From the IMG/VR virus record IMGVR_UViG_3300035501_000922: a DNA stretch of 64,000 nucleotides; one strand, given 5' to 3'. Within the stretch, counting starts at the first letter, position 1, and the number at the start of each line of letters is the position of its first letter. Origin of the DNA: a virus. Taxonomy: Duplodnaviria > Caudoviricetes. The position numbers and the translations under genes were made by a program. This document shows positions 1,016 to 56,400 of this stretch, in pieces. The notes under the pieces are model-generated. The model had not been told where the DNA came from. It did no database searches and worked only from the letters and a program-made list of their open reading frames with translations.

Positions 1016-4000
1016 TTGACAGACTTGGCTAGTAATGATACAACAATCGACAGAAGTTATGTTGATAACTTTTCCGTCAAAGAGTTTACAAAAGAAAACT
1101 TAATTGATAAGTATTTTCCGGATATTGATGTTTCTTTAAGAACGGTCGGAATGGTTGGTTTTACAACAGAACAAGTGTCCAATATATCAGAGGATATTTT
1201 CAATACAGCGACAGTTTTATTTAGAGAAACATTTCCTAATAGAGCACAAATACCTGAGAGTATATATTCACATGCAGCCATTTTTCAGTTATCTAACGTA
1301 TTTTCTTCCGCAGCATCTTGTAAGTTCTTATTAGTGCTTGAAGAAGACGCTATAATTGAAAATATGGCTGATAGTTTTGATAAAGACACAGGAATATATA
1401 CATTTTATATTGATAAAAATACAATAATAAATGTAGAAGATATGCCATATATTTTAGATTATGACATTGAACTTCGCATTGTTAGAAAGAAAAATAAAGA
1501 TAACACCGATGACTATATATTCGCAGCATCATATGTTATTCCCGATAATTTTAAAAATACACTAGCTGATGATAATACTAATAGCGACCCATATATTAAG
1601 ATTAAGCGTTCTGCTGATGGCTATATTGCATTAGAGATAATCTGTCATCAGTGTACACGTTCAGTTGTATATGAGGATATCATTAGCAGTGGTACAATCA
1701 ATTATCCTGTTATTGATGTACCATTTGAAGGTAACTTAGCAGGATTTGATATACGATACAAAACATCTACTGATACAGATGATGATTATAAACAATTAAA
1801 AACATTGGTAGTGTATTCTCAACCCATAGAGGAAAAATTCTGCTATTATCAAATGGCTGATGAGAATACATTAAGAATTACATTCAACACAAAGGATGAA
1901 TATTTTACTCCAGATTATGGTAGTACATTAGAGATTACTCTTTATACTACACTCGGTGAAGATGGTAACTTTGATGTATATACAGGTACTGATATTTCAG
2001 TTACATCTAGTGATGAGAACTATCAGTACAGTACACCGTACATAACAGCAGCTAAGCCGATGACATCATCGAGTGGTGGTTCTGAGCAAATGAGCATGGA
2101 TGGACTACAGTCATTAGCTGTAATGAGTTATCGTACTGCTACAGCATTAACAACTGATGCTGACTTGTCTGAATATTTCTCAAATTACAAATACCTATAT
2201 GGTAACAGTGATATCATGTTCATTAAGAAACGTAATGATATATATGAGAGAATATATTCAGCATTCATTATAATGAAGAATGAAAATTATATATATAACA
2301 CAAACACACTTAGTTTAGCATTAAACTTAAGTGATATGGAAAATCCTGAAACTAGCATATACATGATTCATCCCGGAACTCTTTTTACTGCTTCCAGTAC
2401 AGATTATGGTTATGCTGATTTCTTCAGAGATACAGAATTAACTGCGCAAAATACATCATGGTACAATGAGTATTTAAAAGCAGTTGAAAAAGGTGAAGTA
2501 CTATTTGTGGATGACAGTGTTGACCATAATGACTTACCTGATTATCTTAAAGATAGAAGAGCATCATTTGCTGAATACAAGAAACGAAAAGGATATGATG
2601 ATAAAGTATTCGTGTTTGATTACGATACACCAACTAAGGAGCGAATTCTAAGAAATTATGATGATCCACATCATGAAGCTAATAATCACTTCTTATATAT
2701 TAATCCATTTTTGATAAGATTTAAAAAGAATCCAAACTTAGTAAGTATGTACATGACATATATCAATCAAGCATCCACCTTAGATTTTTCGTATAAATAT
2801 GATGATTCATATGTGCAATTCATACTGTATCAATTGAAAGTTAAGAGAGAATTCTCAAAAGAAAAGAAATACACTTTAAGTGTACAGTTAATGCCTAGTA
2901 CAAGCATCAGTGAGGACTACCCTATTATTAATAGTTCAATTACTACAGTCGATGGATATGAAGAAGTTGATTATGTATTAAATGATAAATATAATACATT
3001 CAATAACGACCTTAGAGTTTTCGTTGTTATAAATGACGGAGTTAAGGATGTTTGTTACATAGAGATGTATCCTACTGATTATGATATAGAAAATGAGAAC
3101 TTTACATTTACTGCAGAATTCTTTACTGATGACCATATCACAACAGATGGAAGACTGAGAGTATTATCTGGTACGATTTATAAACCTACGAAATATGAAA
3201 AGTGCTTATCAACATCAGTTCATGCTCTTCGTGTTGTTGATGATTCTACACCAAGTGATGAATTTGATTCAAAAACTATGATTAAAATATCGGATGTAAT
3301 ATCTGATATACCGGATATTAAAGTTGGTACTGAAGAAGATAAATATGAATACGCACAAATAGCACTTGCAAATGATTATTACCAAGTAAGTGATGATGAT
3401 TATACTATTTATCATCATTATGATGCTAATGGTGTAATTGAAAAAGATATTAACAATGATATCGTTGAATATCCTGTTGATTACATAACTCAGGAAGTTA
3501 ATGCTGGTAATTTAAGAAGATGGTGCCAAGTTGTAAATATGACAAGTAGTAGTGAAATACTCATACCTATGACAGATGTTAAGTGCTTAGTATACACAAC
3601 ATATCGTCGTAAATATGACCCTGATACTTTAAAACTGGAAGTTATTGACCCTGATAATGATGCTCTCTATGACGATGAAAAAGATAGGGATGTAAGAGTT
3701 ATCAATAATATATGCCCTGATAAGAGCTTGGGTGCTAATTCATATGATACGACGCTTGATAGTTATTTCATAACGAATGAGTATCAATCAGCGAGTGACC
3801 CAATAACATTTTTAAAACCATTGAATAATGTGAGGTCAAATCTCATATTTAAAGATTATACATTAACAGAAAACTATACTGATGATAATGGTAATGAAAG
3901 CTTTAGATATGTATATGATATACTTGATGCTGAGATATCATCAATACCATTTATTAGATGGTCAACTGCGTTAGATGAAGATAGTTTATCATATTTCATG

Positions 4001-4495
4001 AATAGCTTTTTAGCACAATATAATAATTTAATAGACATCATTAATACTAAACTGAGGAATGAAACATCCATAGATGTTAAGTTTTATAATACTTATGGAC
4101 GGAGTAAAAACTTTATTATCGGTGAAGAAGATGAGAGAATGGATACAGTTAATCTTTCATTATCATTTGATGTTTGGTTTACTCCGGGAACAGACCTCAT
4201 TAGTGTTGTACCTGATGTTAAAGAATATATTAAAACTGAGATTGAGACAATTAATTCTGATGGTTTGAATAATCTGTATATTTCTAACTTAATGAGAAAA
4301 ATTGAGTTACAGTTTGTTTATGTAGATCATATTCGTTTTAATTACATTAATGAATACGACCCAAAATATCAGGCTGTTAAGAATTACGTTACAGATTTAT
4401 CAGAGTTAACTGTAAGTGAAAGACGAGATTATGTACCTGAGTTTTTAGTAGTAGATACTGAAGATATTACTATTAACGAGTATTTCTCATCTTGA
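1016..4495 (+). CDS. Putative baseplate wedge-like virion protein (1159 aa) carrying inserted modules A and B
   Basis: Large acidic beta-rich ORF. N-terminal 'F..RAQ.PESIYSHA' and internal 'SSGG...T..D' segments resemble baseplate wedge (T4 gp6-like) proteins. Structural context. Confidence 0.55.
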   Translation: MTDLASNDTTIDRSYVDNFSVKEFTKENLIDKYFPDIDVSLRTVGMVGFTTEQVSNISEDIFNTATVLFRETFPNRAQIPESIYSHAAIFQLSNVFSSAASCKFLLVLEEDAIIENMADSFDKDTGIYTFYIDKNTIINVEDMPYILDYDIELRIVRKKNKDNTDDYIFAASYVIPDNFKNTLADDNTNSDPYIKIKRSADGYIALEIICHQCTRSVVYEDIISSGTINYPVIDVPFEGNLAGFDIRYKTSTDTDDDYKQLKTLVVYSQPIEEKFCYYQMADENTLRITFNTKDEYFTPDYGSTLEITLYTTLGEDGNFDVYTGTDISVTSSDENYQYSTPYITAAKPMTSSSGGSEQMSMDGLQSLAVMSYRTATALTTDADLSEYFSNYKYLYGNSDIMFIKKRNDIYERIYSAFIIMKNENYIYNTNTLSLALNLSDMENPETSIYMIHPGTLFTASSTDYGYADFFRDTELTAQNTSWYNEYLKAVEKGEVLFVDDSVDHNDLPDYLKDRRASFAEYKKRKGYDDKVFVFDYDTPTKERILRNYDDPHHEANNHFLYINPFLIRFKKNPNLVSMYMTYINQASTLDFSYKYDDSYVQFILYQLKVKREFSKEKKYTLSVQLMPSTSISEDYPIINSSITTVDGYEEVDYVLNDKYNTFNNDLRVFVVINDGVKDVCYIEMYPTDYDIENENFTFTAEFFTDDHITTDGRLRVLSGTIYKPTKYEKCLSTSVHALRVVDDSTPSDEFDSKTMIKISDVISDIPDIKVGTEEDKYEYAQIALANDYYQVSDDDYTIYHHYDANGVIEKDINNDIVEYPVDYITQEVNAGNLRRWCQVVNMTSSSEILIPMTDVKCLVYTTYRRKYDPDTLKLEVIDPDNDALYDDEKDRDVRVINNICPDKSLGANSYDTTLDSYFITNEYQSASDPITFLKPLNNVRSNLIFKDYTLTENYTDDNGNESFRYVYDILDAEISSIPFIRWSTALDEDSLSYFMNSFLAQYNNLIDIINTKLRNETSIDVKFYNTYGRSKNFIIGEEDERMDTVNLSLSFDVWFTPGTDLISVVPDVKEYIKTEIETINSDGLNNLYISNLMRKIELQFVYVDHIRFNYINEYDPKYQAVKNYVTDLSELTVSERRDYVPEFLVVDTEDITINEYFSS

Positions 4496-4496
4496 A

Positions 4497-4508
4497 AACA
4501 ATAACATA
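4497..4508 (+). promoter_or_regulatory. Late-type promoter AACA-N6-TA
   Basis: AACA ATAACA TA just upstream of RBS AAGGAG and the 4540 ORF. Matches the AR9 non-virion RNAP consensus. Confidence 0.6.
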
Positions 4509-4539
4509 AAAATGAATAATATAAAGGAGTGAATATATA

Positions 4540-5496: not shown

Positions 5497-5499
5497 TTT

Positions 5500-5535
5500 A
5501 AAAGATGAGTATGTATTTTTACATACTCATCTTTT
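5500..5535 (+). terminator. Intrinsic terminator hairpin
   Basis: aaaagatgagtatgta...tacatactcatctttt inverted repeat directly after the stop at 5496. Confidence 0.75.
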
Positions 5536-12624: not shown

Positions 12625-15600
12625 TTAGATTCCTGCTGCTATTCTTTTAGCAAGCTTTTCATTTCGTGATTCTGTATGTTGCAGGGTATTAGAACCACTA
12701 CTTGAACTTGTTGAATTTTTAGAATTGTTATTATTATTTGATGTAACAAAAGTATTATTTGTCACACTATCACCATTGATATCAATAGACTTTAAATAAT
12801 CAAGTTTATCACTTGAATCCAGTGTATTATTAGCTATATCTTTCAATAAGCTTATAATGTTTGCAATTAAAGTACTATCTATCTGGTTTGCCGATGTAAC
12901 ACTGGAAGCTTTAAGAGAACTCTTATAATCCTTAACAACATTATCCGCATTTGTAGACGATGATGTACTGTAGGTTGTTGATTGTTCATCATCACCTCTA
13001 CCACCGCCGCCTTCATGAGGACCACATTGTACAGGAGCAAGAGTGCGTTGCTTAGATATCTTGGCTCCAGTACCACGCCCGCCACTTATTATCTTTCTAC
13101 CGGTACCACTTCCACCGTCATCACCGTTTAATTTTTTTCTAGCGGCTATTACAGCGTCTGAAATATCCATACCTTCTGCTACATACTGGGTAACTAATTC
13201 ACTCATTTTGGTAGAATCAGTACTACTATATGTATCGTAGAATGCTTGCGCATATTTTGTACGCTTAGGCATGTTTGTATAATTCATATTAGATCTTTCA
13301 TATCCTGCTTCAAATTGTTTTGCAGCAGTAACCGGGTTAGTAGCTTTCTTGAACTCATCTACAGTAGTATTTGGGGCATTCCATCTTTTCGAAGGATTTT
13401 GTTTAAACGCCCAGTTTTCTGCATCTATGGTACTATCAAGATAGTCCATCTGCATACTAACATTATTTTTCCATCCGTCAATACCTTTTCCAAGTTTTTC
13501 TGAATACGCACCAATCTTAGTTTTCCAAGGTGTCCACTGTATTAATCCTCCTCCTCCGTCATTAGAGTATACCGCAGGATTAAATGCAGACTCTTGCTGA
13601 ATATTACCCATGATACCAGCTGTAGCTGCAGATGAATATCCTTTTTTGATTAATGCGTTCCATACTTGTGCCTGTACATCTGTTCCGTTAGTTGTTGTAC
13701 CATCGGAACTAGAGTCATCACTACTGCTATCACTACTAGAAGTACTAGATTTTAAACTTGCGATGTAGGATTCATAATCAGTATCATAATTACCAGTAAA
13801 TGCACCATTAACTAAACGGTTACCTATTTCACCCATAAGGCTAGTAACACCTGTTAATATACCACCAGCCGTTGCTGTCCCAGTTGTAGTTTCACTGTTT
13901 CCTGTTGCTGCAGAATTAGGTGGTCTCCATATCTCTTCATAAGCATAATTTGCACCACCTACAGTATCAGTTGCAAGCAAGCCCTCATCACAACCACAGT
14001 TCCATGATTGGTGAGATGCAGCACTATCACCACTAGAATAAATTTCACCATGTGCATTGTGTTTAATTAGAATATCACCTTGGTTTAACTTATCCCAACC
14101 GGGGAAAGTCATTCTGGTAAAGCCAGCATTGGCAAGATCATCAATTAAAGTTTGGCTAGAAGAAGATCCACCAAAATTATGTGATGAGTAACCACCAGTT
14201 GGCATATCATCATCGGGAACTGCACCATAATACCATAAACATGCCGATACGAATCCTGTACAATCTCGTCTAAACCCTCTTTTTCCTTTATCACCAAAAT
14301 CAAATGTGAAATTTTCTTGTTTATACGCGTTGTCTGTTGTGTATCCAGCGGCTAACAATTGTTCTGAGAATAATTGCTTAACTTTTTGTACACATTCAAT
14401 CCAACCCGCAGGACTATCAGAACCACTGGAGTCATCAGTAGTTTTTACTGTGTCATATGTTTTAAGGACTTTACGTATTTTTGATAATATTTGTTTTTTA
14501 TGCTTCATGCCACTATCAGTCGTATCATCTGCCGTTGTGGTAGCCTTGTATGTTATTGTTTGCGCTTTATATTTATCATACGGACTCTTATAGATTCCTT
14601 GGTTTTTATCATTAACCGTCGAATGATTTAAAACATGCTTATACTCTGCATTAGTAATGTCATTTTCTACCTCGGTCTGAGTTTTTGAATTCTCCCATGA
14701 ATTTTTATATTTAGTAGGCCAACCAAAGAAATCAGATGTATATGTATAACCACCATTACTAGTTCGTTGTATGGTTCCATCAGTAGATTCACCAAATCCT
14801 CCACGAATTAATGGTTTACTTCCAAATCCGCCGCCTCGTCTGATTCTACCAAGTCCAAATCCACCATTTTGTCCTTTTGTAGCGTTGGATATAAATGATT
14901 TAGCTCTTGATAAAATTGAGGGGCGGCCTGAACCTGAGCCACCACCTGTACTTACAGTTGTACTTGCACCAATTGTTGACATTATCTTGCTCATTATTGA
15001 TTTATATGTCGTATCATTATAGTGCAATCCATCTGAAGTACCCATCTCATTTTTTGTAAATCCATCTTTAATATATGAGTATACGTCTACCCAACCAACA
15101 TCAGATGGAAGAGCATCTTTTAAGCTTTTATTAAATTTCTCAATACCAGAGTTTGAACTTGTATAATTTTTATTACACGGACCTACTGATATGTAGTAAA
15201 TCTTCGCTCCAAGTTTTGTCATTTCTGTTTTTACAAATTTAGCATACTTATCAGCATTATTTACATCATTTACACCATGCCACATAAGGACTACTGTGTT
15301 TGAATCAACGTATTTCTTGGCGAGGTTATATGCGGTTTCACTTAACCAATCAAATCCACTACCTTCTTTAGCAATATATGTTACATTGTCTTTTGTTCCA
15401 ATATACCCTGTTTGTTGAATATATGGACCACCCATAGCACTACACATACCAACTGTTCTGGAGTCACCAATCATGACAATCTTTTTACCGGAATTATCAG
15501 TACTACTTGTATCTGAAGTAGATGATGAACTTGATGAACTTGAATTATGTAGACTTGAAATATATGATGAATAATCTGAATCATAATTGCCTGTAAAAGC

Positions 15601-18600
15601 ACCATTGACAAAACGGTTTCCTATTTCACCCATAAGGCTACTCAAACCTGAAAGTATACTATTAGTTGATGAGCTTGATGAGGAATCGGATGAGGAATCA
15701 ACTACAGTATTAGTTGATGTGTCATATGTAGAGTCATCACTTGAAGTACTATCCCCACAGTATACATATCCGTGTATACTTCTTTTATTATTCCAATCAT
15801 CAATTGATTGAACTTTAAGTTTACCATCATCTGAATCAACGACGTTATTTGCGGGGTTGTTAGCTTCAGTATAGTATACCTTGTTGTTATCGGTATCAAC
15901 ATCTTCTACAAACATTACGTGTCCGTATTGTGAGCTACTACCTAAAGAAACAAGTGAATTAGCTTTTAATGATGTGCCAGTATCATAACCATCTTTTGTT
16001 GCTTTGCTATATATTTCTCCTCCATTACCTCTGGGTCGGTCTGTTATTCCTTCCCATCCACATTTTTCATACGCACGACCCTCGGCGTACCATGTACACT
16101 GTCCTTCACTTAATTGGTTAATAGGTGATTTATATGCATCGCTATCGAAATTAGCAAGGCGTGTACCAAGTTTGCTCTCAAGTGCTGAACCAAAACCGCC
16201 ACCTTGTCCAAATGACCAAGCAGCTCCAGTTTGTGATGCAACATCATCGACATTAAATTTCTTTGAGTATGATTTACCTCTCGGGTCACTTATATCTATA
16301 TTACCGTTATTATCAATACCAGTTGCAACGACATAATGTCCAGCGGGTGTATATGGAGTATCTCCACTGCCAAATCCGCCAGTGCCAGAAGCACCAGAAA
16401 GTATCATTGGTTTTCCCTGCTCTAATTGCGATTGAATATATTCACCTGAAGGATTAAATTGCTCAGTAGAATTAATACCGTATGCAGCGGATGCTTTATC
16501 TATGAAGTTCCAGTTAGTACCAGTACTATCTCTATCACCAGTCATTTGAGCAAGTGACGCTGTTTCTGTAGGTGTAACATTTTGACCCGTCATCTGTGAT
16601 GCAACCATTGACATTGCTGTCGGTCCACATCCAGTATCACCCATTGTAGCACCATCATTACCATATGCACTATTCTTCCAATCGGAATCATTCTGCGAAT
16701 AGTAAGAAAATCCGTTTACTGTATCAGCTCCACGACCACCGTGAGGTGAACGTAGACGTCTGAATCCCATACCGGAACCTCCCATAATAGATGGTTCACC
16801 GTAATCGTCAGTATCGAAATCATCAACTGTATGTCCATCACCAGAACCACCAGTAATCCATTTAGTAAATTTAGTCCAACCTGCGGATACTGTTGATTTA
16901 GCTTTATCCCATGATTCTTTTACAGATTTCTTGATTTTATCTACTGCGTTTTTAGCAGCACTGTCTTTTTGTATTTTACCCTTTGTAAGTAATCCTGTAG
17001 TTATCTTTTCTTGTACTTCATCAGCGTCAATACCTTTTTCAATAAGGTCATTATTAGCATTATAGTAATCAAACTTCTTACCATTTTTAACATAGTAGTT
17101 TCCATTTGCATCAAACCACGCTTCTTGTGAACTTGATGATACCAATTTCTTAATTGAACCTATAATGCCATTTTCTTGTATTGACTTAAATACTGATGAT
17201 ACCTTAGATTTCATATTTTTATAAAGATCCTTTGCTTTAGATACACCTGTACTCCAAGCATTTGATAACTTATCTTTTATATTATTTAAACCTTCCTTAA
17301 GACTTGAGGAATTAACAACAGCCTCACCCTCAGTAAGATTACCAGAATTAATCTGTTCCGTTATTGTTTCAGAGTCCACATTTTCTTCAATTAAATCACC
17401 TGTAGCATTGTAATGATCGAATCCACTACCATTAGCAACATAGTAGCTACCATCAGTATCATACCACGCTTTTTCCTTCTTTGAAGTTAATGACTTAATT
17501 ACAGAAGTTAAAGGACTAGCAACTTTACTAGCTAGTTTACCCCATTTAGTATCACTGAGTTTACTTAGTTTAGTAAATACACCACTAGCTTTTTCTTTTA
17601 CAGACGAGAAGATGTTCTTTGCCTTATCTCCGATAGCACTAGCAATTGTTCCGATTTTATTCTTTACAGTTGCTGTACCTTCTTCGAGTTCTCCAGCAGT
17701 AATTCTTTCCTGAATTTCATCAGCATCAACATCTTCATCAATTTTACTACCATTAGCATTATAATGGTCAAAACTCTTTCCGTTTGCTACATAATAAGAA
17801 CCATCTGTATCATACCAAGCAGTTTCTTTTTTAGTAGTTAAAAACTTAGCTGCCTTCTTAGCTACATTCTTAACCTTCTTAGTAGTATCTTTTACTTTAT
17901 CTTTAGCTTTATTAAAAAGCTTTTTAGTTGAACCCAGAGGGTCTTTTATAAAATTCTTAGCTCCATTTTTAACTTTCTTAGCAGTATCTTTTACCTTATC
18001 TTTACCCTTATTGAATAGGTTTTTGGCACCTTTACCAAGTTTCTTAAGACCATTTTTACCTTTGTTGAATAGCTTCGTAGCACCGTTCTTAAGTTTTTTA
18101 CCCGCATTTTTGGCTTTATCAACACCAGCGGCTATTAAATCTCCACCTTTATCAGCCATAGATGAAAATGTATTTTTAACATTCTTACCAAACTGCTTAG
18201 CTTTATCAACACCAGCAGCTATTAAATCTCCACCTTTATCTATAAGGTTATCATATGCATCAGCTATTTGAGCACCTACTGTTTTATTTTGGTCATCGTT
18301 CCAATCAGCAAACGAATCATATTTAACGGTATATGTACCATCGTTAACACCATCGATATAGTCAGCGAGAGATACCTCATTACCATCTATTTCACCATTT
18401 TTAACAGCGGTTTCGTATGCATCTTCAATTTCTCCTTGGCGATATTCTTCATATTCGCCTTTCCATTCAATTTGGGCATCTTGTAATTTATCTACATCTT
18501 TGTCTTTTGCAACGATGTTATATATTGCACATGCTATTTGAGTGAGAAGGTCAAAGCCAAGTATGCCTACACATACAACCTCATTTACTAAATCGACGAT

Positions 18601-21600
18601 ACTACCTACTGTTGTACCTGTGAAACCACCGAGTACCGCAGCTATAATTCTCATCTTTCCGTCAACTTTACTTTGAGGTATCTGGAATAGTCTAGCTACT
18701 CCACCATCACCTGAGCTATTGATTGCACCTAGTAAGAATCCGCCACCTTCCATAATAACGGTACCTACACCTAATGTCGCAGCTCCACCAGCTTCTTTTG
18801 CTGCAGCTTCAGTAGCACCTTTTTCAATTTTTTTAGTAGCTTCTTCACCCATGTTTTCAAGACCATCGGTAACACTCTTTTCAACTGCTTTAACGCCCGA
18901 GTCTTTACCAACTTTTTTATTAAGTTTTTTACCTACTTTTTCAAGTAATTCATCTATCCAACTTTTAATTTTTTCAATTATTTGTTTGACTATTTTACTA
19001 CCACCCTTAGAAGCACCTTCAGCTCCTTCTTTAGCGACAGTTTCTGCAGTTTCTTTAGCTGCATCTTTACCGAGGGTTGCAGCAGTGCTTTCTGCAGTGT
19101 CTTTAGCAACAGTTTCGGCCGTATCTTTAACAATGGTTGCGCCAGCGTCTTCTACCCCATTTTTAGCAACAGTTTCAGCTGTGTCCTTAGCTATAGTTGC
19201 GCCAGCGTCTTCTACCCCTTCTTTAGCGACAGTTTCAGCCGTTTCTTTGGCTGTATCTTTAACAATGGTTGCACCTGCATCCTCTACACCATCTTTAGCA
19301 ACAGTTTCAGCTGTATCTTTGGCAGTATCTTTAACAATGGTCGCACCAGCATCTTCCACTCCATCTTTAGCAACAGTTTCGGCTGTGTCCTTAGCAGTTT
19401 CTTCAGCTGTTTCTTTAGCGACATTTTCAGCCGTATCTTTTGCAGCCTCTTCAACTCCTTCTTTTGCGGCATCTCCAGCTATGGTTGCAGCAGCATCTTC
19501 AGCCCCTTCTTCAGCAACTGTTTCAGCAGTGTTTTTACCAAATACATCAGTTATAGGTGTATTCCACCAATCTTGGGCAGCTTTTACTTGACTGCCAAAC
19601 TCAGTACCGTAAAATGCATTTTTAGCATTTGTAACTAAATTGCTATTTGCTATTGCATTTAATCCTTTACTTGCTGCATTTACTCCAGCTTCAGCTCCTG
19701 TGCCGGCAACTTTTAAAGTTGTTCCTGCTACTTTGGTTGTCATAAAAGGTAATTTTGAAAGAACCTTACCAGTAGTTTTTGCAACTTTAGGTATACCTTT
19801 TACGAGTGTTTTTGTTGTTGCTTTAACTGCGTTAGGATGAAGTAAAAAATTTACTTTAGCAGCGGTTGCATGATCGACTTCTCCATCTTCATTCGTGAGG
19901 TATGTTTCTGCAGCTTCTAACGGATGACCTGTAGCAAGATCTTCTATAGCATTAGCATCATTAGTTACCTCTGCAACAGCATTATCAAGATTTGAGCGGT
20001 TATCCTTATTCGTAGATTTATTTTCAGTAAAGCTATTGACAACCCCTGCAATTTTATTAACGAGCGTACCCACACCCTCTGCAATACTCAGTAAAGCATT
20101 CGTTACAGACGGCCAATCAATAGTATTAAAAAGAGTGGCAGAAACTGGGGCTAAGGCAGAAGCTATTGTTGCAACATTAGATACTGTTGTCTTAATTAGC
20201 TTATACGTTTCACCAAATGTACTATTCTCTAATTTTTCATCAATGTTGCTTGCAGTCATTTTAGCCCATTCACCAAATGTACCATTTTTCAGAGCATTAA
20301 ATCCCTCACCTACTGTTGTCGCAACTTTCTTAACAATACTTATTGTATTTGAAAAATGATCAGACACAAGCCATTTCATTGCTTTGGTAACAAACGGTAC
20401 TGCAGCCAAAAGACCTACAGTTATTAATCCCTTTTTGCTAAAGATTTTACTCCATATGGCATTATGGGATTTAGTCTCATCATATTGTGCTTTCGTATTG
20501 TCACGTATTTGAGTGAATAAACTTCTTTCTTTTTCTTTCTCTTTTTCACGAACCTTGTCAGCTTGCTTAACTCCCTTTTCACGAACCTTAGTTAATGCTG
20601 ATTTAGCCAGATTAACAGGAGCGGTAACAACTTTACCAACAGTGTGAACGGCTGCACCAATGGCACCAGTTATGAGACCACGACCTCCTCCACTGCCACC
20701 ACGTATGTGTGTACGTCCAACACCTTCACCACCATTTTCTTCAGTGTTGTCTTCATCTACAAGAGTTATGCTTTCACCATTTTTTTCATCTTTTTTAGTC
20801 TTTTTTGCTGCCAATTTTTCAATCTTTTTATCTTCTTTTTCTTTTAATTTATCCCGTTTTTTCTTTTTCTTTGTTAATTTTTTATTTCTCCGCCAATGAC
20901 CTATATCAAAAGAAAACACATCAGATGTAAATGGATTAAATTTTTCTGAGTTAGAAAGATAGTTATCTAATGATAGAATACCATGTTTACCATCTGTTAA
21001 ATCTAACTTTTTGCCAGAAGCTGAAGAAGTAATTTGACCTTTATTTTTTACAAAGTCATCTGCAAAATCATCAAAACCGTCATAGTCATCAAGCAGTCCT
21101 TTGTCTTTTAATTCAAAGAACTTCTTTCTTGCCATACTACGAAGATAAATATCATATGACTCGTTATCTTTTTTCTCACTATCCTTAATCTCATTATCAA
21201 GATTAGCATACTTTTCACTTTTTTTAAAAAATTTTGCTCCAAGACTTAGAATAGCAGCATTTTTATTTTTCTCTTCAGTTTCTTTGTCTTTATAATCTTT
21301 CATGCTGTTGAAGTTCTTAGCAGTCCATTGTAAAACATCACTGCCATTTTCTTCAACTTCTTTCATAGCGGCTTCTGTATCCCCGCCGTTATTCTCTAGG
21401 ATTTTTTGGTATTCTTTAAAGGCGTTAGTTTTTTCTTCATACGAAAAATTATCGCCCTCTTTTTTAAGTTCATCTTTTGTCTTTTCATCACGGGGATCAG
21501 TATCATCTTTATCTCCTGTAAGTTGTGCATATATTTTACTAGCAATCCAAATGAGTTTACCCTCAGCATTTAAGGTCGAGAAATCCTTCATTTGCTTTAC

Positions 21601-24600
21601 TTGGGCAAAAGTAGTTCCTAATGCAATGGCTCTACCTTCAATTTTTTCTTTAGCTTTTTTTGCCATCTGGTCTTCTGTTTCGACCTTGGTATTTAATTTT
21701 TTAGCTAAACTAGGTTTTGCTCGTATTGCAGCAGCTCTTGCCTCAGCAGTATCTGATGAATACTGTCCTTTAGTTGCTTTTTCTATAATCTTGGCGTTCT
21801 TATCTCTTTCTTTTTGATCGTTATGCTCTTTACGAAGTTTATTTCTCTCGTCTGTTTCAAGCATTTTACGGTATCTCCATCTTTCTGATGGACTCATACC
21901 TTCAGTATTAACAGAGTCTAATTGGGAACCATTTATTCTAGCAGTTAAATTATTTGCACCATCATATAATTTTGCAACACCCTTACCTGCAAGACCTGCA
22001 AGACCTTTTACGCCTTTTCCGAGTAATCTAAGAGGTGTTAAAGCAGTTTTGACAATTTTCAAAACTCCTTTTGTTATTCCTCTTATACCACGTTTTATTT
22101 GGGTTTTAAGCCAATCTTTTCCTATATCTAATGCAGCCTTTAAGTTTGAATTTTCCCATGTTTCTACTATCTTGGATTTAGCAATATCAAGAACACCCCG
22201 AACTAATCTTATAGGAGCTAATACTGCTCCTCTTACAGCATGGAATGTTAATGCCGCTATTCCTTTTACAGTATCGGCTACAGGTTCAATAACGTTATCT
22301 CTTACGATATCAACAAGAGGATCAACAAGGTTTTCTTTAATACCAGTACCGATATCATTACATATGCCACCTATATTGTCTCTGATACTAGCGAACACAC
22401 TGCCAACATGCTCAGATACACTTTCGGTAAGTGCTGTTATAGTATCTCCAAACTTGTATTCTAAGTCTAAAGATACTGTTTTAAGATAGTATGAAAGTTG
22501 AGTTTTCATAGGTCTTAATACATTAGCATTAAGCATATTTCCGAAACGTCCAAAAAGACCGTTCTTATGCTTCTTTTTACCATCTTCTTCATAGTCTTCG
22601 CCAAATAAGAATTTCTTAAACGATTCACCATTAGCGGCTATAGAAGCACCAAGACCCATTAAACCACCAAATATAGGTCCACCAGGCATAACAGCCGAAG
22701 CCATAACACCACCAAGTATACCTATACCTGACATTCCAAGAACCTTACCATCTAGTGAAAATTCTTCGCCATTGTTACCTCTAGATGCTTTTTTACTAAA
22801 TCCATTTTTAATAGCATTAACTAAACCAATTTGACCTTTTTCTTCATCACCAAAAAGGAACGCCTTGAATTTATCAGAACGTGTAACAAGTGTAGTTGCT
22901 ATGCCGAGACCAGCACCAACAATAGGACCACCAACTAATGTGCCTAATGCACCTCCGGTTTTTCCTGCTAATGTTGACGTCAAAGCACCTACTGCTCCAC
23001 CACCAATAATATTCAGTTTATTTTTCTTAATATAATCCTGAGTACCTCTACTTAAGAATCCTCCATATCTTTCTCCAGTTTCGTCATCCTTTTTACCAAA
23101 CAACCAATCCTGGAGCTTTCCACTTCTAGTAAGGATACTTGTAGCAATACCCATGGCAGCACCACCAATAGGACCTCCAACAAGAGTACCTAAAACACTA
23201 CCGCCAGCCATTACTCCAACACCAGCACCAATAGCTCCACCAACAGTGGCATCCTTGGTGTATGTACTAAATTTCTTTTGAATTTTCTCAGAAACTTCCT
23301 TAGAGCTTTGACCCTCAATGGATTCTCCTAAAAATGCTTCTTTCCACTTATCTAATCCACCTTTAAGAGATTCAGTGAAACTATTAAAAATTCCACTGCC
23401 TTTTCTCTTACCTGTAGGATTACCATCTTCATCAACTTCTTCAGGTCCAAATAGTTTGGTCATAATTCCAGCTTTAACAGTACTACCCATATTTTTAAGA
23501 GTAGCTAAAACTGAATCATCCTTATCTTCATATTTATTACCCTTAGAATCAGTCCATGCTTTTCCAGTTAGATTGTGCTTAATGGAACCTAAAATATCAC
23601 CCATACCATTTCTAATACCGGAAAGAAGTCCACCTTCTGAATTACCATTTGCATCTTTTGTACCAAGTAATACAATTTTTAACGGAGAAATAACTTTGTC
23701 TCGCAAAGTATCACCAATTGCAGTAGCTTGTTCTGTAAAGATTTTAGTAAATTCCGTCATGGCTTCTTGGGTATTGCCGTGCATTATTGATGTCATCATG
23801 CCATTTGTATGCTTAGCACCCGAAGAAAGCATTTTACTGAGCAGACCACTTGATTCAAAATCTTGACTTTCCCCTGTAAATTCTTCTCTTTTTCGTCTTT
23901 TATCAATACCTTTAAACTTCTTATTATTCTCTTTACCATAACCCATTTCTTTTGATAATTCAGCATAAATGTTTTCTATATTATCAAGACCTGAGTTTTG
24001 TAGATTATAATAACTAGCATTTTTTTCATAATCTTTCAATTTATCAGTTGCAGCTTGCTGCGTGCTTAAAATAGCAGCAGTTAAGCTGTATGCTGATGAA
24101 GGATTATTCTTTACTAATTTTTGAAGAGCATCATTAATATGGTCTGCATTTTTTCTGCTTCCCTTATTGTATGATATACTCTCTAATATTTTTTGTAATT
24201 CACCATCACTTGAAGTATCTGCAACATTAACATGCTTCTGTGATTGTGTTAACTGCATTACAAATTCTTCAATAGTGTGACGTAATGATTCTTGATTCTC
24301 CTTAGTCGATTCATTTTCAACTAATGTTTTTAATGATTTACCGATTTCTGATGAATCAAAACTATCCATAATAGTATTACGGAAGTCATTAAGAATTCCA
24401 CCACGTAAATCAGCTTGCTTTACGTACTTATTTTGATTATAATCAAAAATATCAGCATCAGCTTTTGCTTTTTGGGTATCAATCTTATAATGGTCAGCAA
24501 TTGCTTTTAAATAAGAAGTCTGCTCTCGTAACTCCTTAGTAATAACCTGTGTAATAGCATGTTTGGTTTCACCATCAAAAGGAATTGCACCTTTTTCAAT

Positions 24601-25701
24601 CTTAGCAGAATGAATAGATGTTTTTCTTTCTGAACGTAAACCAAAATTTTTACCAATAAATTTTGTAATAGTACCTGCCAGGCCAGCACTATATTTATCT
24701 CCCTCATCAGCCAACCTATTAAGCATTGTGGGAACAAAATTAGAGAAAGTCTTTTCAACAGTATCAATTGTTGAGCCAAATACTTTGGTTACCAATCCCT
24801 TAGTTAGTTCTGCTGTAACCATACCTAGAGGATTACTTGCTATCATGTCAAGCATACTCTCATCGAGGTCGAGCATGCCTAGGCTATCCTTTATTTGTTG
24901 ATTTACATAGTTTTTATATTGAGCTAAGTTAATACCACCGTTTTTAGTATTAAAAGTACCGGCGGCTGTAGTCCTATCAGAACCATATATATCGGTGTTA
25001 TTACCGCTTTGACCCATACGGTCATAATAGGCCATACTTGCTTCAATGTACTTGGTCATATTATCATTTTGATATTGAACCAAAGCACTTAAATTGTTAT
25101 TAATATTGGATAAGTGACCTGTTATTTCAGAGCCTAACTTCTCCATTTGATACAGACCTGCTGCACTAACAGAAATAAATGCATCCATTGATGCTTTATT
25201 TGTTTTAAGGATATTCTCAGACTGTTTCTTTATATTGGAAGAAAGATTTAAGACAGCGTCACGAGTTCCACTGTCTACTTGAACGTTATAGTTGTTATTA
25301 GTAAGACTAACGTCTTCGTCTTCATCACCGAATGAAACATCACCCGATGAATCTGACCAGAAGTCATCATTTCCATCTCCAAAATCAAACATTCTGTCGG
25401 TATTATTAAAATTACCTTCTTTTAAATCACTTAAAGCATTTTTATATGCTTTTGCAGCGAATGCTCCGTATTTAGATTGCTTTAATGTATCAGCAACCTT
25501 ACCAACTGTAGCCTTTCCACTTTTTAAAGAGGAAAGAATATTTTTAGAAGTTTTCGCAGATGTGCTTACAACTTCTGATAAATTGGGGTATATTTGTTTT
25601 AACGATTCTTGTGTTGATGCACCAATGCTCTTCATGGCGTTGTCTATCCATTTAGATTTGGTGTTTAATGTTTTTTCAAATGTAGATTTAGAAATAGCCA
25701 T
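12625..25701 (-). CDS. Tape-measure / tail-associated lysin polyprotein (4358 aa)
   Basis: Long helical, Gly/Ala-rich membrane-like N-terminal two-thirds. C-terminal domains recognised by motif: C39-like peptidase, CHAP, SGNH hydrolase, NlpC/P60-like and phage tail lysozyme. Confidence 0.85.
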   Translation of the reverse strand: MAISKSTFEKTLNTKSKWIDNAMKSIGASTQESLKQIYPNLSEVVSTSAKTSKNILSSLKSGKATVGKVADTLKQSKYGAFAAKAYKNALSDLKEGNFNNTDRMFDFGDGNDDFWSDSSGDVSFGDEDEDVSLTNNNYNVQVDSGTRDAVLNLSSNIKKQSENILKTNKASMDAFISVSAAGLYQMEKLGSEITGHLSNINNNLSALVQYQNDNMTKYIEASMAYYDRMGQSGNNTDIYGSDRTTAAGTFNTKNGGINLAQYKNYVNQQIKDSLGMLDLDESMLDMIASNPLGMVTAELTKGLVTKVFGSTIDTVEKTFSNFVPTMLNRLADEGDKYSAGLAGTITKFIGKNFGLRSERKTSIHSAKIEKGAIPFDGETKHAITQVITKELREQTSYLKAIADHYKIDTQKAKADADIFDYNQNKYVKQADLRGGILNDFRNTIMDSFDSSEIGKSLKTLVENESTKENQESLRHTIEEFVMQLTQSQKHVNVADTSSDGELQKILESISYNKGSRKNADHINDALQKLVKNNPSSAYSLTAAILSTQQAATDKLKDYEKNASYYNLQNSGLDNIENIYAELSKEMGYGKENNKKFKGIDKRRKREEFTGESQDFESSGLLSKMLSSGAKHTNGMMTSIMHGNTQEAMTEFTKIFTEQATAIGDTLRDKVISPLKIVLLGTKDANGNSEGGLLSGIRNGMGDILGSIKHNLTGKAWTDSKGNKYEDKDDSVLATLKNMGSTVKAGIMTKLFGPEEVDEDGNPTGKRKGSGIFNSFTESLKGGLDKWKEAFLGESIEGQSSKEVSEKIQKKFSTYTKDATVGGAIGAGVGVMAGGSVLGTLVGGPIGGAAMGIATSILTRSGKLQDWLFGKKDDETGERYGGFLSRGTQDYIKKNKLNIIGGGAVGALTSTLAGKTGGALGTLVGGPIVGAGLGIATTLVTRSDKFKAFLFGDEEKGQIGLVNAIKNGFSKKASRGNNGEEFSLDGKVLGMSGIGILGGVMASAVMPGGPIFGGLMGLGASIAANGESFKKFLFGEDYEEDGKKKHKNGLFGRFGNMLNANVLRPMKTQLSYYLKTVSLDLEYKFGDTITALTESVSEHVGSVFASIRDNIGGICNDIGTGIKENLVDPLVDIVRDNVIEPVADTVKGIAALTFHAVRGAVLAPIRLVRGVLDIAKSKIVETWENSNLKAALDIGKDWLKTQIKRGIRGITKGVLKIVKTALTPLRLLGKGVKGLAGLAGKGVAKLYDGANNLTARINGSQLDSVNTEGMSPSERWRYRKMLETDERNKLRKEHNDQKERDKNAKIIEKATKGQYSSDTAEARAAAIRAKPSLAKKLNTKVETEDQMAKKAKEKIEGRAIALGTTFAQVKQMKDFSTLNAEGKLIWIASKIYAQLTGDKDDTDPRDEKTKDELKKEGDNFSYEEKTNAFKEYQKILENNGGDTEAAMKEVEENGSDVLQWTAKNFNSMKDYKDKETEEKNKNAAILSLGAKFFKKSEKYANLDNEIKDSEKKDNESYDIYLRSMARKKFFELKDKGLLDDYDGFDDFADDFVKNKGQITSSASGKKLDLTDGKHGILSLDNYLSNSEKFNPFTSDVFSFDIGHWRRNKKLTKKKKKRDKLKEKEDKKIEKLAAKKTKKDEKNGESITLVDEDNTEENGGEGVGRTHIRGGSGGGRGLITGAIGAAVHTVGKVVTAPVNLAKSALTKVREKGVKQADKVREKEKEKERSLFTQIRDNTKAQYDETKSHNAIWSKIFSKKGLITVGLLAAVPFVTKAMKWLVSDHFSNTISIVKKVATTVGEGFNALKNGTFGEWAKMTASNIDEKLENSTFGETYKLIKTTVSNVATIASALAPVSATLFNTIDWPSVTNALLSIAEGVGTLVNKIAGVVNSFTENKSTNKDNRSNLDNAVAEVTNDANAIEDLATGHPLEAAETYLTNEDGEVDHATAAKVNFLLHPNAVKATTKTLVKGIPKVAKTTGKVLSKLPFMTTKVAGTTLKVAGTGAEAGVNAASKGLNAIANSNLVTNAKNAFYGTEFGSQVKAAQDWWNTPITDVFGKNTAETVAEEGAEDAAATIAGDAAKEGVEEAAKDTAENVAKETAEETAKDTAETVAKDGVEDAGATIVKDTAKDTAETVAKDGVEDAGATIVKDTAKETAETVAKEGVEDAGATIAKDTAETVAKNGVEDAGATIVKDTAETVAKDTAESTAATLGKDAAKETAETVAKEGAEGASKGGSKIVKQIIEKIKSWIDELLEKVGKKLNKKVGKDSGVKAVEKSVTDGLENMGEEATKKIEKGATEAAAKEAGGAATLGVGTVIMEGGGFLLGAINSSGDGGVARLFQIPQSKVDGKMRIIAAVLGGFTGTTVGSIVDLVNEVVCVGILGFDLLTQIACAIYNIVAKDKDVDKLQDAQIEWKGEYEEYRQGEIEDAYETAVKNGEIDGNEVSLADYIDGVNDGTYTVKYDSFADWNDDQNKTVGAQIADAYDNLIDKGGDLIAAGVDKAKQFGKNVKNTFSSMADKGGDLIAAGVDKAKNAGKKLKNGATKLFNKGKNGLKKLGKGAKNLFNKGKDKVKDTAKKVKNGAKNFIKDPLGSTKKLFNKAKDKVKDTTKKVKNVAKKAAKFLTTKKETAWYDTDGSYYVANGKSFDHYNANGSKIDEDVDADEIQERITAGELEEGTATVKNKIGTIASAIGDKAKNIFSSVKEKASGVFTKLSKLSDTKWGKLASKVASPLTSVIKSLTSKKEKAWYDTDGSYYVANGSGFDHYNATGDLIEENVDSETITEQINSGNLTEGEAVVNSSSLKEGLNNIKDKLSNAWSTGVSKAKDLYKNMKSKVSSVFKSIQENGIIGSIKKLVSSSSQEAWFDANGNYYVKNGKKFDYYNANNDLIEKGIDADEVQEKITTGLLTKGKIQKDSAAKNAVDKIKKSVKESWDKAKSTVSAGWTKFTKWITGGSGDGHTVDDFDTDDYGEPSIMGGSGMGFRRLRSPHGGRGADTVNGFSYYSQNDSDWKNSAYGNDGATMGDTGCGPTAMSMVASQMTGQNVTPTETASLAQMTGDRDSTGTNWNFIDKASAAYGINSTEQFNPSGEYIQSQLEQGKPMILSGASGTGGFGSGDTPYTPAGHYVVATGIDNNGNIDISDPRGKSYSKKFNVDDVASQTGAAWSFGQGGGFGSALESKLGTRLANFDSDAYKSPINQLSEGQCTWYAEGRAYEKCGWEGITDRPRGNGGEIYSKATKDGYDTGTSLKANSLVSLGSSSQYGHVMFVEDVDTDNNKVYYTEANNPANNVVDSDDGKLKVQSIDDWNNKRSIHGYVYCGDSTSSDDSTYDTSTNTVVDSSSDSSSSSSTNSILSGLSSLMGEIGNRFVNGAFTGNYDSDYSSYISSLHNSSSSSSSSTSDTSSTDNSGKKIVMIGDSRTVGMCSAMGGPYIQQTGYIGTKDNVTYIAKEGSGFDWLSETAYNLAKKYVDSNTVVLMWHGVNDVNNADKYAKFVKTEMTKLGAKIYYISVGPCNKNYTSSNSGIEKFNKSLKDALPSDVGWVDVYSYIKDGFTKNEMGTSDGLHYNDTTYKSIMSKIMSTIGASTTVSTGGGSGSGRPSILSRAKSFISNATKGQNGGFGLGRIRRGGGFGSKPLIRGGFGESTDGTIQRTSNGGYTYTSDFFGWPTKYKNSWENSKTQTEVENDITNAEYKHVLNHSTVNDKNQGIYKSPYDKYKAQTITYKATTTADDTTDSGMKHKKQILSKIRKVLKTYDTVKTTDDSSGSDSPAGWIECVQKVKQLFSEQLLAAGYTTDNAYKQENFTFDFGDKGKRGFRRDCTGFVSACLWYYGAVPDDDMPTGGYSSHNFGGSSSSQTLIDDLANAGFTRMTFPGWDKLNQGDILIKHNAHGEIYSSGDSAASHQSWNCGCDEGLLATDTVGGANYAYEEIWRPPNSAATGNSETTTGTATAGGILTGVTSLMGEIGNRLVNGAFTGNYDTDYESYIASLKSSTSSSDSSSDDSSSDGTTTNGTDVQAQVWNALIKKGYSSAATAGIMGNIQQESAFNPAVYSNDGGGGLIQWTPWKTKIGAYSEKLGKGIDGWKNNVSMQMDYLDSTIDAENWAFKQNPSKRWNAPNTTVDEFKKATNPVTAAKQFEAGYERSNMNYTNMPKRTKYAQAFYDTYSSTDSTKMSELVTQYVAEGMDISDAVIAARKKLNGDDGGSGTGRKIISGGRGTGAKISKQRTLAPVQCGPHEGGGGRGDDEQSTTYSTSSSTNADNVVKDYKSSLKASSVTSANQIDSTLIANIISLLKDIANNTLDSSDKLDYLKSIDINGDSVTNNTFVTSNNNNNSKNSTSSSSGSNTLQHTESRNEKLAKRIAAGI
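13230..13680 (-). other. Phage tail lysozyme (Phage_lysozyme2-like) domain within the tape measure
   Basis: 'VWNAL..KGYS..ATAGIMGNIQQES.FNP...GLIQWT...A..F...YER...R..YA..FY'. Confidence 0.85.
13920..14410 (-). other. NlpC/P60-like amidase domain within the tape measure
   Basis: 'RDCTGFVSACL...GDILI...HGEIY' Cys/His pattern. Confidence 0.7.
14970..15485 (-). other. SGNH/GDSL hydrolase domain within the tape measure
   Basis: Blocks 'IGDSRT', 'G.G', 'HGVND' and 'DGLHY'. Confidence 0.85.
15757..16190 (-). other. CHAP amidase/endopeptidase domain within the tape measure
   Basis: 'GQCTWYAEGR...GNG...YGHVMFVE...YTEAN' is the CHAP signature. Confidence 0.85.
16210..16715 (-). other. Peptidase C39-like domain within the tape measure
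   Basis: 'YYSQNDSDW...GCGPTAMSMV...GHYVV..G...DP' gives the papain-like Q/C/H/D pattern. Confidence 0.8.
19020..19530 (-). repeat. Coding tandem repeat (~16-20 aa unit, TAETVAK(D/E)GVEDAGATIVKD) in the tape measure
   Basis: Visible in DNA as recurring 'ctttagcaacagtttc' and 'tatctttaacaatggt' units. Confidence 0.9.
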
Positions 25702-52646: not shown

Positions 52647-52682
52647 AAGAGAGAGAGTGTGTAAAAGCACTCTCTCTTTTTT
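52645..52682. terminator. Bidirectional terminator
   Basis: aaaagagagagagtg/cactctctctttt between convergent genes. Confidence 0.75.
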
Positions 52683-53308: not shown

Positions 53309-53424
53309 TTTAATTCCTCCCGTAAATACATAAATAAATTATATCAATGTCGATTAAATAAAAAAATCGCTATTTTCTTGTAGACAATTCCTTAATAAAC
53401 TTCATTAAAGGAGCTGAATACGTA

Positions 53425-56400
53425 ATGAGTTTAGACTACATAAATCCAATGACAAATTTATATAAAGAATTTCTTGTTATATTACAAAAGATTGTCATTA
53501 AATATAATTATTTAGCCGATACATATGAAACTGTTGAAATGACTCGAAAAGCTAATGAGTATTTGGATGCAGTTGAGAAAAAGGATACCTTTTTCACGTA
53601 TCGTGATTATACTTATGAAGATTTTGATGCAGTTAAACTTTTTGATTATGATATAAGGAAAAAAGCTGTTACTGATATTCGTGCTATACCTGTAGATAAT
53701 TACAATGAAAAGACAGGCATAGGTACTCAGTATAGGCAGAAGCTTTTAGAATTACGTCGTAAAAAAGTCATAGAAGAATATGAAGAACAGAATAACTATT
53801 ATAGAATGTTAAATGGTCAGCCTGATACAGATGCTGACCCTCGCTATTTTTTCTATGTGACAGATGAAATAGCTGAAGAGTATGGAATTGACCCCACTAT
53901 TCCAATACATGAATTACAAGATTACTATAATAATCTTGACCCTGATTTTCCAGACCATGGTGACCAGATTATGGCTATTCTTGAAGGTATTGGTTATATT
54001 GATACTGTCAAGAATGCATCAAGAGAAAAGAGAAACCTGATATATGGTGGTTCCATCTGTGGTGGCTCTGGTGCTATGGTTACAGCTTCATTGACAACAG
54101 CTGCAAGAGCTGAACTAGGGATAACATCAATGAGAATTAATCTCACTAATGATGCGAGTCCTATTACCGGATATAAAGCTAATGAAAATCTTTATTATAA
54201 TGCTGCAACAATTAGTTCGTTTGCTGGTCTTGATATACAACCGGGTGACTGGGTTATGTCAACAGGTAGTAAATGGAAGAAAGTTGATAGCGACGTAGAT
54301 ATACAGGGTGAAAGCGATACCTGTGAGGGTTATTTGAATTATCTGGGTTCACAGAGAATTAGTATATTAACTGCTCGTAAAGCTAAAAACTTTGAGATAC
54401 TTCGTCTAGATAAAAATCTTATTCGTACGAATGTTTATGATACATTTGTAGATATATACAATCAGTGTCGTGACTATATGGTAACCGTAGTATATCAGTA
54501 TGACTTCAGGTCATTTATGAGTTATTATGATAACTTCATTGCTATGTGCATTATGCTTATGGCTGAACTTCATCTTATAACTAAACAAATACCATATGAA
54601 GTTAGAAGAAACTTTTTTGATGTATATGCATTACGTATGCTTTATGAAGCATATAATATGCCGTATGATATATATGTAGATATAGATACACAAAACCTGA
54701 TTGCTCAGAACCTGAATATGATTATTATTAATAAGGCTACTAATAAAGTTATTTATGACGTAGCTAATTTACTAGGATTCAGTAACTTAACAGCGTATAA
54801 ATATTATCTTGCTAAGCAACATAAACTTGACCCTTATGGTAATCCTATATTCAAGACTACTGAAAGATTTAATACTGATACGGGAGAGTTAGAAACGGTT
54901 CCTGATTATGATACAATGTATGATATCTATTTCCAAAAAGAAGAATTAATGGAAGATGATTTTATACAGTCATTCAATAGTAAGGTAAACCGTGTTGAGT
55001 ATAATGTCATAACTCCGAATGATGCATTCTGGTGGGAAGACCAAAACTTAATTGATAGAAAGAATGAAACCGACTATAACTTTGTGGAAAGCAAATATTT
55101 AAGTTTGGGTCTTTCATATAAAATGACTGATGTTTTATTTGAAAATGTCATTCTGTTAAAAACTGTAATGTATTATAAAAACGAACTTAGTGATATTAGC
55201 ATATCACTTCCTAAGATTATAACAGGTGCTCCTGTTCCTTTATTCGATGCTATAATTCTTTTAATTTGTCTTGTAAGTAAGAAGCATAACCTGACTGGTG
55301 AGATTATCTCTATACCAACTGATATTATATCAGTTTTGGATTATTTGAATAATATGGAAAGTAGTCGTGGTTTAGTTGATACATTTGCATTCGATTTTGA
55401 TTATTTCAAAACTGATGAAGGACAAGATGAAATTGAAAAAGTTAAAGAGTGTTTGGGTAAAATAGCAGTTGGTTTATTTGACAGCACGGGTGGATACTAT
55501 GTTTTTGATGACCCAACCTATAGCTATTATAATAGTTTTGATGAGAAAGTTGAAAGTGATATTAGCACTGATGTAGTGGCAGAACTCATGAAGATGGGTG
55601 AATTAACTACAGGTGAAGTTGATGTACATGGTGATGACGTTGATTTATTCGAAGAATACATCAGCGTACTATCATTAGATTCTGTTAGTGGACGTGCTGA
55701 AAAAATAGAGACTCTTAATAAAATCTATACGAATATTAAAGGTCTCTATAAGTTCTTAAATGAAAAGATGATTGATGCTTCTGATAAAGAAACATATGAC
55801 ACTTTGAGAACGTTCTATAATGCTGCATTTTATGCTAAAGAAGTAAAAGATATATTTACAATTCAGTGGAGAGACAGTACGGGAGAAACTCACCAGAGAA
55901 CTGCAAAGAACTTTTTTGAATATTTATATTACAAAAACCGTAGTTTATATCTATCTATTTTCTATATGGATTTTGAAAATGAGTATGATAAGTTCCTTAA
56001 CAATAATACATTCCCCACACTTATTCATAGTACATCCGATAATCCTGATTCTCTTTTAGTAATAGATGACGATGATAATATGACTGGACCTTCAATTAAA
56101 TTATCTGAGGTACAGAAGTATGTACCAAATGCAAGGGTTGGCGATAGAGTTGAAATATGTCCTGAACCAACTTATGCTGAATTTACTGATAAACTTAATG
56201 CAGGTTTAATTGATGTATCATTTGATGTGATGAAAGAGATTACAGAAGGAGAGAGTAACAATGAAAGTGCAATGAGTGCTACTATCTATTATTACGTAAA
56301 TCATATTATCTCGAAATTTAAAAATATAGTAGATAATATTGACTATTCATATATGCTTAATGATGTATCAACTTTATTACAGGACTTATTGATTAAACTG

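Follow-up and report, generated by a model that had tools for sequence, protein, structure and literature searches.

Module B, a predicted mini-domain shared by a tape-measure-like giant and other proteins of an uncultured jumbo phage

A viral DNA of 64,000 nucleotides (Caudoviricetes; IMG/VR record IMGVR_UViG_3300035501_000922), called the window here over its whole length, encodes three large proteins in which a segment of about 50 amino acids (aa), module B, had been noticed: three times in a tape-measure-like giant (TMP), and once each in a protein of 1347 aa and a protein of 1159 aa. The locus raises the questions of whether these five segments are copies of one domain, how it came to lie in such different proteins, and what it might do in them. 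The initial annotation had taken the segments as five copies, the one in the 1159-aa protein being more diverged, and had suggested either an assembly-tag system of the tail tip or repeated shuffling of two cassettes, module B and a companion, module A. The carriers and the parts of the module are as follows.

12625..25701, minus strand: tape-measure-like giant (TMP), 4358 aa, with Peptidase_C39_2, CHAP and Phage_lysozyme2 (Pfam) in its last third
17677..17823, minus strand: module B copy 1, TMP aa 2627-2675
17326..17472, minus strand: module B copy 2, TMP aa 2744-2792
16978..17124, minus strand: module B copy 3, TMP aa 2860-2908
17125..17676, minus strand: two Lys/Ser-rich basic linkers of ~67 aa each, isoelectric point (pI) ~10, one on either side of copy 2
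53425..57468, plus strand: 1347-aa virion protein (P0007), phrog_20751, a distant relative of PBS1 gp153 and phiR1-37 g234
55471..55629, plus strand: module B copy of the 1347-aa protein, TMP-type, aa 683-735
1016..4495, plus strand: 1159-aa tail-cluster protein (P0008), phrog_18960, with relatives in AR9, PBS1 (gp103) and phiR1-37 (g207)
3176..3205, plus strand: first strand of module B as predicted for the 1159-aa protein, aa 721-730, placed from the orthologue alignment, the AlphaFold2 (AF2) strand and the VIA-align ranges
3206..3370, plus strand: insertion with module A in the 1159-aa protein, aa 731-785
3371..3526, plus strand: remainder of module B in the 1159-aa protein (strands 2-4, helix, last strand), aa 786-837

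Translation agreed with the coordinates and sequences first given for the three TMP copies and for the 1347-aa copy (quoted as 55471-55620; it lies on the plus strand, as does the 1159-aa copy); the start given for the 1159-aa copy, window position 3372, was corrected to 3371, where the frame begins. Each TMP copy is 49 aa long, and the three sit immediately upstream of the enzyme part of the giant, where an acidic module B (pI ~4) and a basic linker (pI ~10) make up a repeat unit of ~117 aa. The DNA identity among them is only ~66%, so they are regarded as old duplicates; copy 3 is orthologous, by position, to the last copy of the homologous giants. Elsewhere in the TMP, aa 713-745 (23467-23565, minus strand), KAWTDSKGNKYEDKDDSVLATLKNMG, resemble the first hairpin and helix of module B; this stretch is far from significant (domain E 150-380) and could be a decayed copy or a chance resemblance.

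Homology of the copies was examined with two profiles of the TMP type. A hidden Markov model (HMM) of the three TMP copies was run against all 810 six-frame open reading frames (ORFs) of the window, and a larger TMP-only profile was made from 54 copies in the window's giant and 16 homologues of it, 17 giants in all. The 1347-aa copy was recovered with both, at E 2.7e-8 and E 2.2e-13, respectively. The 1159-aa copy, which has 7 extra residues ahead of the helix when compared with its orthologues, was non-significant when taken alone (E 0.4 and third in the window with the three-copy HMM, E 0.27 with the 54-copy HMM). Its orthologues matched far better: 88 of 119 were hit by the TMP-only profile at an independent E value (iE) <1e-3 at a homologous site near residue 700-760, and when the family was aligned with MAFFT, DYYQVSDDDYTIYHHYDANGVIEKD...VDYITQEVNAGNL of the window's protein fell in register with these matches, column for column. 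Against a profile of the orthologue modules built without it, the window's copy scored 45-49 bits (E ~3e-16). Finally, the TMP-type profile (A1) was aligned with that of the 1159-aa-family type (A3) using hhalign, which returned a probability of 98.4% and E 4.2e-15 over 47 columns; failure of the non-TMP copies to align significantly had been named beforehand as a result that would speak against a common origin, and it did not occur. From the E value of the 1347-aa copy, the orthologue matches and the match between the two profiles, all five copies are judged to be homologous, the diverged one in the 1159-aa protein included. The residues conserved in both sequence types are chiefly aromatic, hydrophobic and turn glycines.

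Structure prediction was carried out for one copy of each type. TMP aa 2624-2678, modelled with AlphaFold2 from 47 aligned copies, gave a predicted local distance difference test score (pLDDT) of 94.5 and a predicted template modelling score (pTM) of 0.75, with five strands and one helix in 55 residues (strands 3-7, 13-17, 20-24 and 30-36, helix 37-46, strand 50-54). The conserved D-x-D-G, N-G and N-x-N-G motifs coincide with three tight turns of this model. P0008 residues 700-865, modelled from 105 orthologous segments (pLDDT 92.7, pTM 0.80), show the same order of elements across the module (E-E-E-E-H-E, E being a strand and H the helix), and 14 of the top-50 weak VIA-align matches are common to the two models. 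These shared matches lend indirect support to one fold for the TMP and 1159-aa copies. Module B is thus predicted to be a domain of ~50-55 residues that folds on its own, as a four-stranded beta-meander followed by a helix and a fifth strand. A complex prediction for three module B copies (A1) scored 0.00, a value that bears neither way on self-association.

Fold and sequence searches returned weak rows. With the TMP copy as query, nothing in the PDB reached E<=0.001 in Foldseek; the best of 48,161 chains in VIA-align had a Z of 4.3, the rows being mostly propeller blades and Sm-like; and in BFVD the best E was 0.03, with small uncharacterised phage proteins as the only matches. The segment of P0008 fared no better (best Z 3.4, no convincing match). 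No family can be named for module B from these rows. Nor did hmmscan of 47 module B copies against Pfam (E<=10) give a family for the module, and a PDB sequence search with profile A1 yielded nothing usable, no phage tail protein being among the matches listed.

Both large proteins had been described as carrying module A beside module B, which holds; in the 1159-aa protein, though, module A does not merely precede module B but appears to be nested in it. In most orthologues of this protein the first strand (IYRN) continues directly into G-x-YYKV, and ~100 of 120 have module B without the module A insertion, whereas in the 1159-aa protein of the window and those closest to it ~55-120 residues with module A stand between the two motifs. 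The AF2 model of P0008 places a strand at residues 721-730 (model residues 22-31), ahead of the insertion, and the weak VIA alignments that span the whole TMP model begin at about residue 19-23 of the P0008 model and skip the insertion. An in-silico splice of module A out of P0008 did not raise the HMM score, so it is the orthologue alignment and the AF2 model that carry the nested reading. From these we infer that module A lies within the first hairpin of module B. A-like segments occupy other loops of module B in P0033 and P0149; thus nesting is seen in at least three proteins, in different loops, and the two modules occur together in at least three carrier families.

To determine the distribution of module B, 1.84 billion representative proteins were searched with a profile; only 89 carry it at E<=1e-3. 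About two thirds of these are giants, 3000-5400 aa long, in each of which 1-6 stretches were matched; among the others, a few rows represent biased repeat proteins or pieces of giants. When the TMP repeat region was compared by tblastn with 50,697 phage records, there was no match in cultured phages. By these searches, module B does not extend beyond a single uncultured clade of jumbo phages, AT-rich and related to AR9/phiKZ. The 16 homologous giants have 2-4 copies each at iE<1e-3, or as many as 6 with weaker ones included, spaced at 107-129 aa (median 117), and the array in the giants stops ~90 residues ahead of the C39-like domain. The module could serve as a handle for delimiting this large uncultured clade and would back a new domain-family entry. 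Further carriers were found in relatives of the window.

286-292-aa protein, with both module A and module B
294-aa protein, with two module B copies, adjoining a Laminin_G_3 gene
1211-aa protein
~630-aa proteins
several 142-680-aa proteins, with a C-terminal module B

A PHROGs search of ten other module B carriers gave no functional annotation; one carrier, P0340, matches phrog_18960 and is a member of the 1159-aa family. P0325 (293 aa) joins the last module B and linker of a giant to a fragment of Peptidase_S11/PBP5_C as well as a membrane tail; it was set aside as a carrier, being most likely a chimeric metagenomic contig that continues tape-measure sequence.

Presence and absence were then mapped across the orthologues of both large proteins, as had been proposed at the outset. 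Module B is near-constant in the 1159-aa family (the 88 of 119 members given above). In the 1347-aa family it is present in 9 of 121 members and lacking in 112 (93%), and the alignment places it at no fewer than three insertion points, with a hot spot between the motifs VDTFAFDFDYF and YISVLS; in that family it is an accessory insertion. There are two sequence types: the 1159-aa type is near-constant and integral to its protein, the TMP type forms tandem beads in the giant, and the TMP-type profile scores higher for all copies away from the canonical 1159-aa site, bar one weak tie.

Two IMG/VR relatives, G003 and G004, depart from this arrangement. Their canonical 1159-aa-family site is without module B, and 2-3 TMP-type copies lie ~150 residues upstream in the same protein. 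Their TMP giants (L027 in G003; L026, G004:C1:2064-13766, in G004) have a single degenerate B-like stretch (GDDGNYYAYDVKTGKQL...SGDIVKEG), so that near-loss in the TMP and gain in the 1159-aa orthologue form an inverse pattern in a single lineage.

Module B therefore very probably represents a domain family disseminated by shuffling among tail genes, as one of the two original proposals had it: several insertion points, changes of site in two relatives and unrelated carriers all speak for repeated cassette shuffling. TMP-type copies have been inserted in frame, repeatedly, into the 1347-aa family and at other sites of the 1159-aa family, and have also entered small proteins, some of them fibre-like, and the C-terminal tails of unrelated proteins; module A would in turn have been inserted into loops of module B. 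Judging from identity (~30% in protein, 66% in DNA), these transfers are old, not recent.

The surroundings of the carriers are those of a jumbo phage. The window has a G+C content of 32%; among its products are a split beta subunit of a multisubunit RNA polymerase, a tubulin of the PhuZ-like kind and numerous PHROGs annotated as virion structural. Distant relatives of the 1347-aa and 1159-aa proteins occur in Bacillus AR9/PBS1, Yersinia phiR1-37 and Staphylococcus, Listeria and Fusobacterium jumbo phages, and the nearest relatives of the window are uncultured contigs of 200-300 kb. On gene content and these relatives, the source of the window is taken to be an uncultured jumbo phage within the wider AR9/phiKZ-like group. 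The 1159-aa gene is flanked by a gene of tail-tube fold and a fibre gene, and other genes near the carriers are listed with them.

3-1007, plus strand: gene preceding that of the 1159-aa protein, Phage_TTP_15 tail-tube fold (E 5e-9)
7244-9337, plus strand: 697-aa fibre gene downstream of the 1159-aa gene, DUF859 and C-terminal Peptidase_S74 intramolecular chaperone
10423-11025, minus strand: RusA-like Holliday junction resolvase (phrog_140, E 2e-28), amid tail genes and directly downstream of the gene neighbouring the giant
57514-58563: 349-aa ORF between the 1347-aa gene and the PhuZ-like tubulin gene
58641-59807, plus strand: PhuZ-like tubulin (phrog_4733, E 3.5e-12), two genes downstream of the 1347-aa protein

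The label 'baseplate-like', first given to both large proteins, is plausible by gene context, and phrog_20751, matched by the 1347-aa protein, is a virion structural protein; no family or solved structure identifies either one. Pfam and PDB sequence searches with P0007, P0008 and their family profiles (A4 and A5) left both without identification, Pfam giving noise only for the two proteins and their families, bar a weak Laminin_G_3 in two members of the 1347-aa family. The 1347-aa protein also has a C-terminal extension (~56960-57400; aa ~1180-1330) that most of its family, at ~915 aa, does not have. It looks Laminin_G_3/ConA-like (weak Pfam hits, E 0.03, in two members), has the motif W-H-I-I-A-L...V-F-I-D-G, and may be a receptor-binding part.

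As to function, the explanation that we lean towards on balance is that of a shuffled mini-domain family providing an accessory binding module at the tail tip. An accessory binding role is suggested because module B is dispensable in most 1347-aa orthologues and movable in the 1159-aa family, and action at the envelope because it accompanies hydrolase domains, Laminin_G_3-like parts and fibre-like parts; the subclade of the 1347-aa family that bears it has a weak Laminin_G_3-like C-terminus. That the module is a putative accessory envelope-binding module can be put forward tentatively, by analogy, and may well prove wrong. It would be exposed and help the tail tip to hold a host-envelope polymer, and after ejection it would hold the lysin end of the tape measure on that polymer, much as other phages employ Ig-like, FN3 or LysM modules.

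Several observations weigh against this explanation. Conservation of core and turn positions between the two types fits a fold and not a shared binding surface, and sequence and fold searches gave no match to a known carbohydrate- or wall-binding module. The TMP copies should lie inside the tail before infection, an odd location for an adhesin. The small carriers are presumed to be fibre-like from sequence motifs, the PHROGs search having given no hit to that effect, and the apparent compensation between the TMP and the 1159-aa orthologue in G003 and G004 comes from one lineage only.

Two other roles for the sequence were tried and rejected. The 'L-T-E-G' end of module B was considered as a prohead-protease (L/I-x-E) site, and was discarded since many copies have Lys, Thr, Ala or Gln in place of the Glu. 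Calcium loops of the EF-hand/dockerin type do not fit by the spacing of the turns: by eye, the D-x-D-G and N-x-N-G-D turns are off the EF-hand 1-3-5-12 spacing, and the Pfam dockerin model matched none of the 47 copies.

The assembly tag of the initial annotation would have module B, alone or with module A, bring the distal end of the TMP and several proteins of the baseplate or fibres to one shared partner at the tail tip and position them there. Its fixed site and near-constancy in the 1159-aa family are what such a tag would lead one to expect, and the 1159-aa gene comes after the tail-tube-fold gene, so its product could be near the tube and the tape measure. The association of modules A and B in several carrier families, with module A nested three times, agrees with a docking role, as does the prediction of the A+B segment of P0008 as a single confident unit (pTM 0.80); there is also the precedent of a docking domain shared among phiKZ tail paralogues (PMC13250141). 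Yet the 112 orthologues of the 1347-aa protein without module B are still conserved virion proteins, the position of the module within its carriers is not conserved, and the number of copies in the TMP ranges from about one degenerate copy to 6; because of these three points an essential tag is unlikely, and the proposal found no positive support. Modules A and B, moreover, are both acidic and often lie in one chain, a poor fit to a lock between A and B in trans, and no partner of module B was identified, none having been sought.

An inert bead or spacer, that is, a robust fold tolerant of insertions that adds length, rigidity or solubility (as beads amid basic helices of the tape measure, for instance) and spread as a harmless passenger, is improbable to a similar degree. 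It would account for conservation that is limited to core and turn positions, for a TMP copy number that varies while the spacing stays regular, for the toleration of another domain in three different loops of module B, and for the absence of a recognised ligand-binding fold in the fold searches. It sits less well with purifying selection over a long divergence, in which the positional orthologues of the giants can still be recognised and the module has been retained by 88 of 119 members of the 1159-aa family. It is also opposed by G003 and G004: where the canonical copy is lacking, copies stand elsewhere in the same protein, and for that reason the 1159-aa protein seems to need a module B copy.

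Further down the scale stands the idea that module B and its nested module A serve the tail tip as a portable code for docking, with an assembly logic like that of cohesin and dockerin; it is a long shot, and if it were true, moving a cassette would re-wire which proteins mount on the baseplate. Least credible, and for practical purposes refuted, is the explanation that the copies outside the TMP are chance or compositional look-alikes produced by an AT-rich proteome rich in Asp, Asn and Tyr, for which the E of 0.27-0.4 of the 1159-aa copy alone against the TMP profiles can be cited, and against which stand the E of 2e-13 of the 1347-aa copy, the hhalign match of the family profiles at E 4e-15, the matches at one site in 88 of 119 orthologues and the like topology predicted for the TMP and 1159-aa models.

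It remains to compare the favoured accessory binding module with known systems. The closest general parallel is provided by immunoglobulin (Ig)-like domains, which occur in phage lambda gpV, T5 pb6 and SPP1 gp17.1* (PMC8718954). According to PMC8718954 and to Fraser et al. 2006 (pmid 16631788), as cited in it, assembly can often do without the Ig-like, Big_2 and FN3 modules of phage tail tubes and decoration proteins, which supposedly help adsorption. Ig-like domains are scattered over tail, head and fibre proteins, and are believed to adhere weakly to surfaces. Like Ig-like domains (Big_2, FN3, I-set), module B is small, self-folding, sporadic in structural proteins and variable in copy number. 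It differs in being about half the size, with a predicted beta4-alpha-beta fold in place of a sandwich of 7-9 strands in ~80-100 residues, in being restricted to one phage clade, and in standing in tandem within a tape-measure-like protein; it has no Pfam match, and hmmscan of the 47 copies (E<=10) matched no Ig-like, Big or FN3 model. We know of no Ig-like domains in such a tape-measure position. Promiscuous accessory domains of virions are known, and to our knowledge nearly all of the described cases are Ig-like folds.

Arrays of LysM, choline-binding and CW_binding repeats offer a second comparison. They too are short tandem modules (20-50 aa) with linkers beside peptidoglycan hydrolase domains, and have aromatic-rich beta-hairpins. 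The W-x-D-x-x-G-x-Y-Y of module B seems to us reminiscent of choline-binding hairpins, a likeness which we take as a lead only, the Pfam match being at noise level: of the CW_binding_1 and Choline_bind models only Choline_bind_4 was touched, by one of the 47 copies at E 0.098, far below the gathering score, and WW_like by one at 0.07. The LysM model matched none of them, and the LysM order is beta-alpha-alpha-beta, unlike that predicted for module B, which moreover occurs in proteins without a hydrolase as well.

The gp131 paralogues of phiKZ (gp132-gp135) have a common N-terminal domain that is proposed to seat different fibres on the baseplate (PMC13250141). The likeness lies in one domain being common to several tail proteins of a jumbo phage; the difference, judged by description only, is that the gp131 domain is N-terminal and defines a paralogue family, whereas module B is internal, at varying sites, in unrelated proteins and also in a tape measure.

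Tape-measure proteins with embedded lytic domains are represented by T5 pb2 and the TMP of mycobacteriophage TM4. The giant of the window resembles them as a tail-lumen protein bearing cell-wall hydrolase domains (here C39-like, CHAP and tail lysozyme); neither is known to us to have tandem non-catalytic globular modules in common with baseplate or fibre proteins.

Beside these systems, module B appears to be a mini-domain with no record in the databases searched (Pfam, PDB sequence, fold). It is unusual in forming tandem beads inside a tape-measure/lysin giant and in being itself host to a second inserted module. It opens experiments on how the tail tips of jumbo phages recognise and hold the cell envelope, and should its ligand prove to be a wall polymer, it would constitute a small binding scaffold of a new kind.

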